Positions 291 through 5,830 of a stretch of 5,893 bases of DNA are shown here, piece by piece. The notes below the pieces were generated by a model. That model was not told where the DNA came from. It saw only the letters and a program-made list of their open reading frames with translations, and did not search any database. Location of the stretch: IMG/VR virus record IMGVR_UViG_2698536372_000022; one strand, given 5' to 3'. Position 1 is the stretch's first letter. Each line of letters opens with the position of its first letter. The DNA comes from a virus. Lineage: Duplodnaviria > Heunggongvirae > Uroviricota > Caudoviricetes. The position numbers and the translations under genes are program-made.

Positions 291-482
291 TTAAAGACCT
301 GCCGGGATTTCGATATTATCCTGGTGAATAACTTTATCGACCGGGTAACAGTTACCGGGAATTTTCTGTTCGGTTGCTGCAGTCATACACTCCTGCATTG
401 TCCTGTGAACACTGACTGCAATATCAACTGGCACTCCGGAAACAAGAAAAACTGTCAGAACAAGCGCAAATGCTGAATTCAT
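291..482 (-). CDS. ydfD: YdfD-family small prophage lysis protein (63 aa)
   Basis: Internal Met of the 291..536 ORF gives MNSAFALVLTVFLVSGVPVDIAVSVHRTMQECMTAATEQKIPGNCYPVDKVIHQDNIEIPAGL, which matches E. coli YdfD as I recall it. Its ATG (480-482) overlaps the dicB stop (479-481) as ATGA, suggesting translational coupling. It has an N-terminal hydrophobic segment. Confidence 0.85.
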   Translation of the reverse strand: MNSAFALVLTVFLVSGVPVDIAVSVHRTMQECMTAATEQKIPGNCYPVDKVIHQDNIEIPAGL

Positions 483-667
483 TGTGCACATCCTTTTGGC
501 ATCAGACGTAAACGAGCCAGCATTGAAACAATGCATATTTTATTTAATAGCTCCCGTTCTTGTTTTCTCTTGTTAATGGCATCTTCAGTAAATACAGGGT
601 TACTGATAGTGACACCAATTTCAAAACAACCTTCAGACGTATTAACGTTTGGTAATAACGTTTTCAT
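479..667 (-). CDS. dicB: Cell-division inhibitor DicB (62 aa; acts with MinC on FtsZ)
   Basis: Internal Met of the 479..772 ORF gives MKTLLPNVNTSEGCFEIGVTISNPVFTEDAINKRKQERELLNKICIVSMLARLRLMPKGCAQ, which is the E. coli DicB sequence as I recall it. GAGGA lies about 9 nt upstream of the ATG at 665-667 on the minus strand. The longer N-terminal extension in the ORF track has no ribosome-binding site and is not expected. Confidence 0.9.
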   Translation of the reverse strand: MKTLLPNVNTSEGCFEIGVTISNPVFTEDAINKRKQERELLNKICIVSMLARLRLMPKGCAQ

Positions 668-836: not shown

Positions 837-894
837 AAAAAGGGCGGCAGAGCAGTCACGGAGTAAAACTGATACCGCCAAACGTCACCAGAAA
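837..894 (-). ncRNA. dicF: DicF small regulatory RNA (53-nt mature sRNA plus U-tail of its intrinsic terminator)
   Basis: Reverse complement of 842-894 reads TTTCTGGTGACGTTTGGCGGTATCAGTTTTACTCCGTGACTGCTCTGCCGCCC, followed by TTTTT (837-841). This is the DicF sequence as I recall it, with its GC stem and U-tract terminator. It sits between the ydfB/ydfC region and dicB, as in the Qin dicB operon. Confidence 0.9.
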
Positions 895-1730: not shown

Positions 1731-1886
1731 TCACTCACCTGAGTTTCTTTCCAGCCAGCGACGGGCACCATTTTCGGTTTTAAACGTTTTGCTTTTGGTA
1801 TACGTCATCGCGGTGAACGTGCCGTCCTGGTTGGGGAACACGCCACATACCAGAGATTCGCTGTTGCCAAGATCGATAGTATCCAT
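1731..1886 (-). CDS. ydfA: YdfA-family small prophage protein (51 aa, DUF1391-like)
   Basis: Internal Met of the 1731..2042 ORF gives MDTIDLGNSESLVCGVFPNQDGTFTAMTYTKSKTFKTENGARRWLERNSGE. GAGGT lies 7-8 nt upstream of the ATG at 1884-1886 on the minus strand. It is the first gene downstream of the dicA-like repressor gene, the ydfA position in Qin. The N-terminal extension in the ORF track is unsupported. Confidence 0.85.
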   Translation of the reverse strand: MDTIDLGNSESLVCGVFPNQDGTFTAMTYTKSKTFKTENGARRWLERNSGE

Positions 1887-1962
1887 GCTGACCTCATTTC
1901 CCCTTAACGCCGGGGTAGCGGAACTGTTTGCTGAGAACACCGTGCGGTGTCTTGATGGAGGT

Positions 1963-1991
1963 AATTTAGTTTTCTCATTATTTTTCGTCAA
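1963..1991 (-). promoter_or_regulatory. Candidate sigma70 promoter of the leftward dicB operon (ydfA-ydfB-dicF-dicB-ydfD)
   Basis: Minus strand reads TTGACG (-35, plus-strand 1986-1991), a 17-nt spacer, then TAAATT (-10, plus-strand 1963-1968). The predicted transcription start is about 70 nt upstream of the ydfA ATG. Operator-like motifs overlap the spacer/-10 and lie just upstream of the -35. Confidence 0.5.
1964..1977. promoter_or_regulatory. Operator-like site O3 (imperfect TGAG-N4-CTAAA) overlapping the -10/spacer of the dicB-operon promoter
   Basis: Minus strand reads aTGAGAAAACTAAA. It shares the 10-nt core TGAGAAAACT with the sites at 2001-2014 and 2537-2550. Confidence 0.4.
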
Positions 1992-2000
1992 GGTTTTTTG

Positions 2001-2014
2001 ATGAGAAAACTCAA
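2001..2014. promoter_or_regulatory. Operator-like site O2 (ATGAG-AAAA-CTCAA) immediately upstream of the dicB-operon -35
   Basis: Plus strand reads aTGAGAAAACTCAA at 2001-2014. It shares a 13-nt core with the palindromic site in the dicA/dicC intergenic region. Confidence 0.45.
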
Positions 2015-2078
2015 GTGTTGGCGCAAGATAAAGCCAATACATTGAAATGTAAGGCTTTAAAATTTTGTGAAGGGATGA

Positions 2079-2486
2079 TTATTGATGCTTGTTGCGTTTG
2101 CGAGCCTCTAATAGCTCGGTGAACAGGCGATTAAAATTCTCAACGCGGGCGCGGAGTTCGCTGAGTTGTGCTTGTTGCTCTGATTTAGGAAGTGCGCGAT
2201 ACAAACGCAGCATCTCTAACTCATCTTCCGATAAGTCTAAGGCACTATCGAGTGAAACAGGGGGAGCTGGTGTTTTGTCCTCGTCGCCAAACAGTATCCA
2301 AGTTGGTGAACATTGCAATACCTCGGCGAGGCGATGCAAATTTTGCCCGCGCGGGGCTGTATGGTCACTTTCCCATAATGAAATTGATGAGCCAGATACG
2401 CCAGCAGCTTTGCTTAAACCGTTTTGACTTAAGCCTACCTGCTTACGTCTTTCTCTAATGCGTTGACCTAAAGTTTTCTCGTTCAT
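2079..2486 (-). CDS. dicA: DicA-like prophage repressor (XRE-family HTH, 135 aa; no S24 peptidase domain)
   Basis: From the second Met the product is MNEKTLGQRIRERRKQVGLSQNGLSKAAGVSGSSISLWESDHTAPRGQNLHRLAEVLQCSPTWILFGDEDK... It aligns along its full length with E. coli DicA as I recall it (METKNLTIGERIRYRRKNL...VLQCSPTWILFGDEDK) and has the same length. There is no Shine-Dalgarno before the ATG at 2484-2486, so it is leaderless-like, as is common for cI-type genes. It is divergent from the cro-like gene. Confidence 0.9.
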   Translation of the reverse strand: MNEKTLGQRIRERRKQVGLSQNGLSKAAGVSGSSISLWESDHTAPRGQNLHRLAEVLQCSPTWILFGDEDKTPAPPVSLDSALDLSEDELEMLRLYRALPKSEQQAQLSELRARVENFNRLFTELLEARKRNKHQ

Positions 2487-2507: not shown

Positions 2508-2537
2508 TTGACTTGAGATTCCTTGAGTGATTAGCAT
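2508..2537 (+). promoter_or_regulatory. Candidate rightward early promoter for the dicC-like operon
   Basis: TTGACT (2508-2513), an 18-nt spacer, then TAGCAT (2532-2537). The palindromic operator at 2537-2550 sits at the predicted transcription start. TTGAG half-sites recur at 2513, 2523 and 2537 with 10-bp spacing. Confidence 0.4.
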
Positions 2538-2563: not shown

Positions 2564-2791
2564 ATGTTTAAATCAGACGTAATTAATTTTTACGGTACGA
2601 AAGCCAAAGTAGCGAAAGCTGCTGGCGTTGACCCATCTGCTGTTTCTCAATGGCAAGAGCTGGTTCCTGAAGGTCGCGCGATGCGTCTACAGGAGGCATC
2701 TGGCGGCGAGCTTCTGTATGATCCCAAGGTTTATGACGAATATCGTAAGACGAAGCGGGCGGGGCGGTTGAACAATGAAAATCACTCCTGA
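2564..2791 (+). CDS. dicC: DicC/Cro-like transcriptional regulator (75 aa, YdaS/DicC family HTH)
   Basis: ATG at 2564 with GGAGG 4 nt upstream. Product MFKSDVINFYGTKAKVAKAAGVDPSAVSQWQELVPEGRAMRLQEASGGELLYDPKVYDEYRKTKRAGRLNNENHS. The C-terminal half matches E. coli DicC as I recall it. It is divergent from the repressor gene. The TTG start at 2537 in the ORF track is less likely. Confidence 0.85.
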   Translation: MFKSDVINFYGTKAKVAKAAGVDPSAVSQWQELVPEGRAMRLQEASGGELLYDPKVYDEYRKTKRAGRLNNENHS

Positions 2792-4735: not shown

Positions 4736-5830
4736 ATGATCAAAGAGACTGTTACGATGAGTCATAAGGAACTCCACCGACTTCAGATTATTCAGGAGTC
4801 AATTAATCGACATATTACTCAGGAACAAGCTGCGGCACGCATTGGCATTTCTATTCGGCAGGTTAAACGTCTGGTGCAACGGTATAGAAATGAAGGGCCT
4901 TCTGGTCTGGTTTCCCACCGACGTGGAAAGCGTCCTAATAATTCCTTTTCTACTGAATTCAGAGCAACAGTAATTTCACTCCTCAAAGGCCGTTACGCTG
5001 ATTTTGGACCTACGTTTGCGTGCGAAAAATTGCGCGAGATACACGGTTTATCTTTATCCGTTGAAACTCTCAGAAAGTGGATGATAGAAGAGGGGTTATG
5101 GCGTGAACGCCGTCGTAAAATTGCCCGTATATATCAACGCCGCATGCGACGACCATCTTACGGTGAACTGATCCAGATTGATGGCTCACCTCATGACTGG
5201 TTTGAAAATCGAGGCCCCAGATGTACACTGATCGTTTTCATTGATGATGCCACCAGTGCGTTGATGGCGTTGCGTTTTGTGCCTGCTGAAACAACCCGGG
5301 CTTACATGGAAACCCTCCGGGGTTACCTTAATGATCATGGCGTACCGCTCGCTCTCTACTCTGATAGACACAGTATATTCAGGGTAAATAACCCAGAGCG
5401 GGAAGGTGAGCTGACCCAGTTCACTCGTGCGATAAAGACACTGGGCATCGAGCCAATCCATGCCAACAGCCCGCAGGCAAAAGGGCGGGTAGAGCGCGCC
5501 AATCAGACACTACAGGACAGGCTGGTCAAAGAAATGCGGCTTCAGAATATCAGTGATATTGAAACAGCAAATGCATGGTTGCCGACCTTTATTGAAGCCT
5601 ATAACAACCGGTTCGCTACGTCGCCTCGTACTACTGATAATGCTCATCTTGATGTGCACCATTCTGAAGAGGAACTGGGTTATATCTTCAGCCTACAGGC
5701 GAAGCGCGTTCTGTCTAAAAATCTCACTTTCCAGTACAAAAGCAGTGCGTTTCAGGTACGCAGTGAGGGCCGGGGATATCGACTTAGGCATTCGGTTGTT
5801 ACTGTATGTGAGAACTTTGAGGTAGCCTGA
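4736..5830 (+). CDS. DDE transposase of the rve (retroviral-integrase-like) superfamily with N-terminal HTH; IS481/ISNCY/IS21-IstA-like
   Basis: The N-terminal HTH region reads AARIGISIRQVKRLVQRY. The catalytic core has the DDE arrangement: D in QIDGSPHDW, D in LYSDRHSIF, and E in the KGRVERANQ signature typical of rve transposases. Alternative start at ATG 4757 (MSHKEL...). The exact IS family is not resolved from memory. Confidence 0.85.
   Translation: MIKETVTMSHKELHRLQIIQESINRHITQEQAAARIGISIRQVKRLVQRYRNEGPSGLVSHRRGKRPNNSFSTEFRATVISLLKGRYADFGPTFACEKLREIHGLSLSVETLRKWMIEEGLWRERRRKIARIYQRRMRRPSYGELIQIDGSPHDWFENRGPRCTLIVFIDDATSALMALRFVPAETTRAYMETLRGYLNDHGVPLALYSDRHSIFRVNNPEREGELTQFTRAIKTLGIEPIHANSPQAKGRVERANQTLQDRLVKEMRLQNISDIETANAWLPTFIEAYNNRFATSPRTTDNAHLDVHHSEEELGYIFSLQAKRVLSKNLTFQYKSSAFQVRSEGRGYRLRHSVVTVCENFEVA

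Follow-up and report, generated by a model that had tools for sequence, protein, structure and literature searches.

The toxic division inhibitors DicF and DicB, together with the lysis protein YdfD, are made when the immunity circuit of a Qin-like prophage allows it, and the short intergenic stretch between the dicA-like repressor gene and ydfA raises the question of which promoter and which operators take that decision. The DNA analysed here, called the window throughout, is 5893 bases long and is found at 100% identity in a prophage of E. coli O26:H11 strain 11368 and in many other EHEC genomes; it is a Qin-like lambdoid prophage of E. coli O26:H11 with an mEp460-type immunity module. The region at 1963-2016 is very probably the PL-analogue control region (dicBp), a predicted sigma-70 promoter silenced by the DicA-like repressor at shared operators. 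RefSeq annotation and our own scans are concordant on the gene order:

Left part of the window, leftward: end of an exonuclease gene (RefSeq)
291-482, minus strand: ydfD (DUF1482; Pfam E 2e-25, RefSeq)
479-667, minus strand: dicB (Pfam DicB E 2e-40, RefSeq)
842-893, minus strand: DicF small RNA (Rfam RF00039, 76.7 bits, E 3e-16)
1731-1886, minus strand: ydfA (DUF1391), first gene of the operon, ATG at 1886 (Pfam, RefSeq)
2079-2486, minus strand: dicA-like repressor gene, 135 aa (RefSeq, Pfam HTH_3)
2564-2791, plus strand: cro/dicC-like gene, 75 aa, P22_Cro family (RefSeq, Pfam)
Beyond the cro-like gene, rightward: ydaT, a replication-type gene, DUF977 and an ISEsa1 transposase (RefSeq)

These assignments, with DicF from Rfam and DicB, YdfD, YdfA, the HTH_3 repressor and P22_Cro from Pfam and RefSeq, agree with the gene names given in an earlier note on this DNA. 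According to the RefSeq annotation, ydfB is truncated in the window's operon, ydfC is absent or replaced, an opposite-strand gene is inserted and a rem gene is present in the same prophage. The candidate promoter lies between the dicA-like gene and ydfA, codirectional with both, and DicF, dicB and ydfD are all found downstream of it in the operon, as in a Qin-type dicBp. An Rfam search of 1700-2100 at E <= 1 returned a single chance match to rpsB (15 bits). The elements of the intergenic region, listed in the direction of the operon, are:

2029-2059, minus strand: hairpin followed by UUUAUCUU (U-rich tract), past the dicA-like stop (-11.3 kcal/mol, z = -3.3)
1999-2016: candidate operator B1, promoter-distal, core ATGAGAAAACTCAA at 2001-2014, in opposite orientation to B2 (motif, entropy)
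1992-2000, minus strand: A-rich tract CAAAAAACC that separates B1 from the -35 (read from the sequence)
1986-1991, minus strand: -35 hexamer TTGACG (promoter scan; TTGAC kept in K-12 and in same-immunity loci)
1963-1980: candidate operator B2, promoter-proximal, 18-bp frame, core 1964-1978, TAATGAG-AAAA-CTAAATT on the minus strand (motif, entropy)
1963-1968, minus strand: -10 hexamer TAAATT of the dicBp-like (PL-analogue) promoter (promoter scan; in register with K-12 TAATCT)
1955-1957, minus strand: predicted transcription start, 7 nt past the -10
1887-1956, minus strand: conserved 5' leader of the ydfA-dicF-dicB transcript (entropy 0.13 bit, K-12 alignment)

The promoter scan gives TTGACG-17-TAAATT (1991-1963, minus strand) nine of 12 consensus matches, and no other match of that quality lies between dicA and ydfA. 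In the window as a whole, matches of equal quality are not more frequent than in shuffles (6 versus 7.4 +/- 2.8), so the hexamers alone prove nothing. The promoter had been described as near-consensus, and the hexamers and the 17-nt spacer stand, although the adjective is generous for a -35 with five matches out of six and a -10 with four. Its placement some 70 nt upstream of ydfA is borne out by a predicted +1 at about 1956 and the ATG at 1886. The predicted start also appears to mark the border between immunity-specific DNA and the conserved ATCAA... leader: the window and K-12 become similar again no more than a few bases from it, the first common block being CATCAA from 1957, and ATCAA follows a -10-like hexamer in most other immunity types too. 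Upstream, the A-rich tract could be a proximal UP-element subsite, a weak assignment because 1992-2000 varies among relatives. The DNA of the hairpin at 2029-2059 varies little among 46 same-immunity sequences; it is probably the dicA terminator, and dicBp would therefore be a separate transcription unit. Leader hairpins or a nut-like element were also sought, but the single-sequence fold of the leader was no better than shuffles (z = -0.18), RNAalifold found zero compensatory pairs in it, and the weak covariation in a hand-drawn 4-bp stem was equalled by 30 of 500 shuffles.

A much rarer signal than the hexamers is the 10-mer TGAGAAAACT, of which the window holds three exact copies (1968-1977, minus; 2002-2011, plus; 2538-2547, plus), where 0.01 is expected and none of 200 shuffles reached three. 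Two of these copies lie at dicBp as the arms of a 14-nt inverted repeat (1965-1978 / 2001-2014, 93% complementary). When the motif is relaxed to TTGAG-N4-CTCAA, five of seven matches fall inside the two control regions, which together make up about 5% of the window. B2 spans the 3' part of the spacer and the entire -10, from -24 to -7 in its 18-bp frame, and each of its halves carries one change (ATGAG, TTTAG), because the right half must double as the -10. The B1 core sits at about -58 to -45 (18-bp frame, -60 to -43) and combines one good half (cTTGAG) with one that has a T-to-A change (ATGAG). The earlier note had located both sites correctly, including the overlap of the weaker one with spacer and -10; it had the upstream site abutting the -35, but nine bases (1992-2000) lie between them. 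The centres of B1 and B2 are 35-36 bp, or about 3.4 helical turns, apart, so dimers on the two sites would occupy nearly opposite faces of the DNA and simple side-by-side cooperativity is not favoured. No third operator was found between or beside B1 and B2 at <=2 mismatches. A fourth copy of the 10-mer with one mismatch, at 2472-2481 in dicA codons 3-6, was rejected as an operator and is probably coincidental, since chance alone predicts 0.55 copies with one mismatch per window and Buttiauxella has other codons there, for MNEM instead of MNEK. A literature search found no publication on the operator string ATTGAG-AAAA-CTCAAT of this allele, and the published O157:H7 dicA/dicC work is without mapped sites.

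The third exact copy lies on the other side of the repressor gene, in the control region of the cro-like gene:

2508-2537, plus strand: PR-analogue promoter TTGACT-18-TAGCAT for the cro/dicC-like gene (promoter scan)
2535-2552, unstranded: Oc-equivalent candidate operator C-ATTGAG-AAAA-CTCAAT-A (motif, degenerate scan)
2513-2526, unstranded: weak Om-like site TTGAGATTCCTTGA, 8/10 arm positions (degenerate scan)
2488-2501, unstranded: weak Oa-like palindrome TTTAGATATCTTAA, adjoining the dicA start codon (inverted-repeat and degenerate scans)

The arrangement is that of K-12, in which TTGACT-17-TATCTT is followed directly by Oc; the Oc-equivalent overlaps the -10 end and the start site of the cro-side promoter, in the same place as K-12 Oc. 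What had been called a perfect palindrome at 2536-2551 is indeed a perfect 6+6 inverted repeat (ATTGAG/CTCAAT), but its AAAA centre is asymmetric. Of 18 unique upstream sequences, 17 have the site unchanged while its immediate flanks vary; the one exception (L011) belongs to another immunity type. The centre of the Om-like site is 24 bp from that of the Oc-equivalent, and the site is less conserved in Buttiauxella; the Oa-like palindrome is not strictly immunity-specific, because it is kept in L009-L011. On the PR side, Oc is accompanied by two weak sites, at centre-to-centre distances of 24 and 25 bp; on the PL side two sites can be recognised, 36 bp apart. The two weak sites mirror K-12 Om and Oa, neither of which is bound by DicA on its own (PMC3441716); poor binding, or a need for help, is thus conceivable for B2 and other degenerate sites.

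Comparison with the Qin prophage of K-12 places these elements in a known circuit. The K-12 gene order is the same (dicC, divergent dicA, promoter, ydfA-ydfB-ydfC-dicF-dicB-ydfD), except that the right arm has ydfX/ydfW where the window has ydaT and replication genes. On the operon strand the two promoters read:

Window: TTGAGTTTTCTCAT-CAAAAAACC-TTGACG-AAAAATAATGAGAAAAC-TAAATT-ACCTCC-ATCAAGACACCGCACGG...
K-12 dicBp: ATGTTAGCTATAGCATACAA-AATCAC-TTGACC-GATATGTTAGTCATGGC-TAATCT-TGTTTGC-ATCAACACACCGCACGG...

The hexamer pairs TTGACG/TTGACC and TAAATT/TAATCT agree in register to within 1 bp and lie 12-13 nt ahead of the common leader ACACCGCACGG; leader and ydfA are conserved from about +1, whereas upstream of it only the hexamers align. 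Operators of the K-12 type occupy the same places, in the spacer/-10, about 8-9 bp ahead of the -35 and directly adjoining the dicC -10, but they are of the TGTTAGT-N4-ACTAACA type (TGTTAGT-CATA-ACTAACA; Oc, TTGTTAGTCATAACTAACAA) and those of the window are ATTGAG-AAAA-CTCAAT. The K-12-type operator has zero matches in the window at <=3 mismatches, and TTGAG-N4-CTCAA has zero matches in the K-12 locus at <=1 mismatch. Because the operators are mutually absent and the recognition helices differ (SGSSISLWESDH in the window, SHVSVSQWERGD in K-12), the immunity of the window is, judged by sequence, a heteroimmune (mEp460-type) allele of the K-12 circuit, with the same architecture and a different specificity.

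Much is established for the K-12 allele. In vivo, DicA occupies Oc, and the substitution of a single base is enough to abolish binding (Yun et al. 2012, PMC3441716). A dicBp fragment of about 113 bp, bounded by primers O-PR241/O-PR242, reaches from the dicA stop codon to about +20; lacZ is expressed from it, with a 22-fold derepression when dicA is deleted. Within the locus, a dicBp-lacZ fusion responds to the antirepressor Rem with a 165-fold induction, and deletion of dicC leaves dicBp activity unchanged (Ragunathan et al. 2023, PMC10448788). That a single repressor should control the immunity region as well as dicBp is therefore not a new idea: it has been published for Qin of K-12 (Bejar et al. 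1988, as cited in PMC10448788) and is standard lambdoid logic; the operator sequence is what differs here. In RegulonDB the K-12 DicA site at dicB is a low-evidence entry with its location listed as unknown. The OL-OR distance is 536 bp in the window and 511 and 546 bp in K-12, and no looping claim is made because the phasing is inconsistent between alleles.

If B1 and B2 are operators they should be retained while their surroundings drift, and this is the pattern seen downstream of the repressor gene, where 89 same-type loci yielded 47 distinct sequences, of which 46 were scored; L011 was left out as a different immunity type despite passing the recognition-helix filter. Across the 46 sequences, mean column entropy was 0.058 bit for B1 (14 bp) and 0.043 bit for B2 (14 bp), followed by 0.10 bit for the -10 hexamer and 0.22 bit for the -35 hexamer; it was 0.39 bit in the discriminator, 0.48 bit in the 9 bp between B1 and the -35, 0.53 bit in the 5' part of the spacer and 0.58 bit in the 12 bp distal to B1. 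By this measure the two sites are 7-13 times less variable than adjacent bases, and sites and non-sites are separated in a Mann-Whitney test over columns with p = 6e-8, a value that is overstated because the sequences are phylogenetically related.

The sites also change in step with the repressor. A scan of a genome collection gave DicA relatives at 44% to 100% identity, and the co-variation test rests on 11 loci in four helix groups. Buttiauxella prophages L009 and L010, with repressors 76% and 74% identical to that of the window and the helix SDSSISLWESD, keep TTGAGTTTTCTCAA at all three positions, in the same orientations and with the 35-bp B1-B2 spacing, and L009 has a perfect ATTGAGTTTTCTCAAT at the B1 place; their flanks, leader and -10 (TAACCT) differ from the window. 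At the same two places, loci with the helix SHVSVSQWER (K-12, Citrobacter NCU1) have TGTTAG...CTAACA, those with xHVTISQWE (Symbiopectobacterium, Yersinia, Rosenbergiella) have GTTAGATTT / TCTAACAAA, and those with SSVSVFKWE (E. whittamii, LSJC7) have TAACTTTTGTTA. When the longest exact match is tabulated for every pairing of an upstream with a downstream region, the table falls into blocks along the recognition-helix groups, and neither a host-factor site nor a decaying duplication would behave in this way. A profile search of viral contigs for further immunity types, with ranking by the first sequence, returned only the window's own type. With a promoter in the K-12 dicBp register, conserved sites and co-variation with the recognition helix, the two-region model that the earlier note had proposed for a single repressor appears sound. 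Furthermore, the cross-type co-variation offers independent sequence-based support for the place of action of DicA at K-12 dicBp.

The proteins fit this picture. The window's repressor is 57% identical to K-12 DicA overall and about 38% identical in helices 2-3, the lowest value along the protein, and the Cro-like protein is 70% identical to K-12 DicC, with the differences concentrated in its N-terminal 32 residues. Repressor residues 1-72 match the N-terminal domain of P22 c2 (1adr, E 8.3e-16; 2r1j, E 4e-15; phmmer against PDB), a homologous HTH, and the Cro-like protein belongs to Pfam P22_Cro. The P22 half-site consensus is ATTTAAG, and the window half-site xATTGAG shares four of the six contacted positions with it. 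As a dimer, P22 repressor occupies 18-bp sites, where it touches positions 2-7 and 12-17 but not the four bp in the middle, and an A-tract centre gives the tightest binding (PMC4267663). The candidate operators of the window have a matching layout, being twofold-symmetric and about 18 bp long with four central bp that form an A-tract. The repressor is P22-like in DNA recognition only: P22 c2 has a LexA-like/S24 C-terminal domain, and no such autocleavage and oligomerisation domain was found in the window's repressor, for which Pfam gives only HTH families over the 135 aa. P22 also has three PL-side operators, compared with two recognisable ones in the window that bracket the -35 at 35-36 bp, and Asn46 of P22 repressor is Arg in the window's repressor. 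K-12 DicA, likewise of the 135-aa type without a cleavage domain and with rem in the same prophage, as in the window, is reported to lack the Ala-Gly cleavage site (PMC10448788). Since the window's repressor has no peptidase domain, its induction would not be via RecA cleavage.

A similar logic operates in other cryptic lambdoid immunity regions. In CP-933P the CI analogue PaaR2 represses a PR-like promoter and a distant PL-like promoter (PL933P) via shared repeats (PMC8630535), and CP-933P and Rac (PMC11879457) have ydaT after the cro-like gene, as in the window. Their repressor family and motif (GTTTAGTAA-type 18-bp palindromes) are unrelated to those of the window and, unlike the window, they have a toxin-antitoxin pair behind the repressor and, in PaaR2, an octamer.

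In the proposed mechanism, sigma-70 polymerase would start near 1956 from TTGACG-17-TAAATT and transcribe leftward via ydfA, DicF, dicB and ydfD. The 135-aa DicA-like repressor, encoded immediately upstream, would bind as dimers to the 16-18-bp ATTGAG-AAAA-CTCAAT operators. Occupancy of B2 would cover spacer and -10 and block sigma region 2; that of B1 would flank the -35 and shut off the UP/alpha-CTD region; and that of the Oc-equivalent (2535-2552) would cover the -10/+1 of the divergent cro-side promoter, so that a single protein would keep the division-inhibitor operon silent and the cro-like gene as well. The affinity order is expected to be Oc > B1 > B2, because the match to the symmetric consensus falls in that order. 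Relief would come via a Rem-type antirepressor and a DicA/DicC bistable switch, as described for K-12 (PMC10448788).

The TGAGAAAACT sites might instead serve mainly or only the Cro-like (DicC-like) protein or YdaT, with the DicA-like repressor using other sequences. The N-terminal DNA-binding part of the Cro-like protein also differs from K-12 DicC alongside the operators, and co-variation by itself is therefore not enough to give the sites to DicA. Furthermore, Cro and CI share operators in lambdoid phages. Footprints overlap for PaaR2 and YdaS of CP-933P as well (PMC8630535). By analogy, the Cro-like protein of the window probably uses the same sites, and the wording of a single repressor in the earlier note is incomplete to that extent. 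An exclusive assignment to it is nevertheless very unlikely: the site geometry fits a P22 c2-type domain, known YdaT boxes are a different motif (TTGATT-N6-AATCAA) and, in K-12, DicA binds the positionally equivalent Oc in vivo and dicBp responds to deletion of dicA and not of dicC. Silencing by the DicA-like repressor remains the preferred reading. The hexamer match is not above chance by itself, and ydfA-dicB could be transcribed from elsewhere, for example by read-through from dicA on which the repeats then act. This is slightly less probable still, given the stable hairpin and U-rich tract past dicA, the conservation of the hexamers in register with K-12 dicBp, the lack of any other 9/12 match between dicA and ydfA, and the behaviour of the short K-12 fragment, which has no dicA promoter and is nonetheless a strong DicA-repressible promoter (PMC10448788).

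The alikeness of the -35 regions of the two promoters (AACCTTGAC / AACCCTTGAC) hints at common ancestry, and the three copies could on that account be non-functional relics of a PL/PR-side duplication or recombination; alternatively, they could be sites for a host protein. Either origin is the least credible of those considered, since relics would decay at the rate of their flanks, rather than being 7-13 times less variable and surviving in another genus, and a host-factor site would not change with the recognition helix of a phage repressor. Beyond the repression model, it is conceivable, though unlikely, that the DicA family has a PL architecture distinct from that of lambda and P22, in which the -35 is flanked by two operators of opposite orientation that lie a conserved 35-36 bp apart, each built around an asymmetric, invariant A4. 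Such sites would be read partly by minor-groove shape, with Arg46 in place of the Asn46 of P22 repressor, and looping could couple the dicBp sites to the perfect site some 536 bp away across the repressor gene. If so, each copy of the division-inhibitor module would be an independently switchable bistable unit.

Repression of dicBp by the DicA-like protein at operators shared with the cro side, the reading favoured here, leaves the current picture of lambdoid immunity control unchanged. It predicts that the window's allele is not cross-repressed by K-12 DicA, and the operator ATTGAG-AAAA-CTCAAT is a ready target for reporter and EMSA work.

The module is widespread. Of 5426 complete E. coli genomes, 797 (~15%) carry the immunity segment at 1940-2570, 565 of them at >=99% identity and 191 at 90-95%, and the same segment occurs in the lambdoid phages mEp460 and HannyBb; O26 and O157 EHEC are among the carriers. 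Several Qin-like dicF/dicB modules are found in EHEC genomes, and their immunity alleles differ.

Downstream of the dicBp promoter, the ydfA transcript would open with a leader that is conserved across immunity types, and further elements were read beside the neighbouring genes.

Features of the window (coordinates, strand, description)
1172-1492, plus: hydrophobic ORF of 106 aa opposite the dicB operon, with DicF on one side and the ydfB remnant on the other
1887-1956, minus: 5' leader of the ydfA transcript
2029-2059, minus: hairpin (-11.3 kcal/mol, z = -3.3) followed by UUUAUCUU, 3' of the dicA-like stop codon
2486-2504: palindrome TATTTAGATATCTTAATA, directly adjoining the dicA-like ATG
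2766-2783, plus: TTGAACAATGAAAATCAC, overlapping the ydaT start codon
4736-5830, plus: ISEsa1 (IS1202-like) transposase gene with a truncated C-terminus, breaking the prophage right arm past DUF977

The first leader hairpin lies directly 3' of the +1 and reads ACACC-GCAC-GGTGT in the window and ATCAC...GTGAT in other genera, while the second, CCCC-GGCGTTAA-GGGG, is preceded by an invariant GTTCCGCT and has counterparts in LSJC7 (GCCT...AGGC) and C. braakii (CCCTG...CAGGG). In more distant relatives, GTTCTGACA precedes a stem capped by a GAAAGA loop, an arrangement reminiscent of boxA/boxB nut sites. The leader had no matches in Rfam, and its hairpins gave a weak signal in covariation tests. 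The promoter itself varies among some viral-contig relatives when aligned to window positions 1963-1991: for example, the -10 changes from TAAATT to CAAATC in L024, while in the -35 L033 and L071 have CTGAC, and L099 has TTGAT, in place of TTGAC. These changes should make the promoter weaker, and they could mean that the toxic operon is decaying, or is being selected against, where the copy is cryptic.

The 106-aa ORF occupies the place of ydfC in K-12. The RefSeq O26 record leaves it unannotated, and neither Pfam nor PHROG gave a match; phage HannyBb has a hypothetical protein, annotated as such, that is 98% identical to it, and distant relatives occur in mEp390 and in Burkholderia phage Bcep176. 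This ORF is probably a genuine moron-like gene that runs convergent to dicBp transcription.

The hairpin beyond the dicA-like gene was missed by the terminator scan because it is A+T-rich, and E. whittamii has an analogous hairpin of different sequence (AAAGGCAATG...CATTGCCTTTATTTTT) 3' of its repressor gene. At the other end of the gene, the palindrome resembles the P22 operator, ATTTAAG-ATAT-CTTAAAT, minus one base in each half. It is retained in Buttiauxella and in C. braakii, the latter having a different operator type, and may serve as the Oa/OR3-like site or belong to a promoter that yields a leaderless dicA mRNA. The element at the ydaT start is similar to the published YdaT box, TTGATT-N6-AATCAA, which in Rac reads ATGATTCATGAAAATCAA (PMC11879457), and this resemblance suggests that the window also holds a putative CII-like YdaT autoregulatory or PRE-like element.

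Towards the right end, the window loses its identity to most O26 genomes at 5823; just two genomes continue to match as far as 5893.
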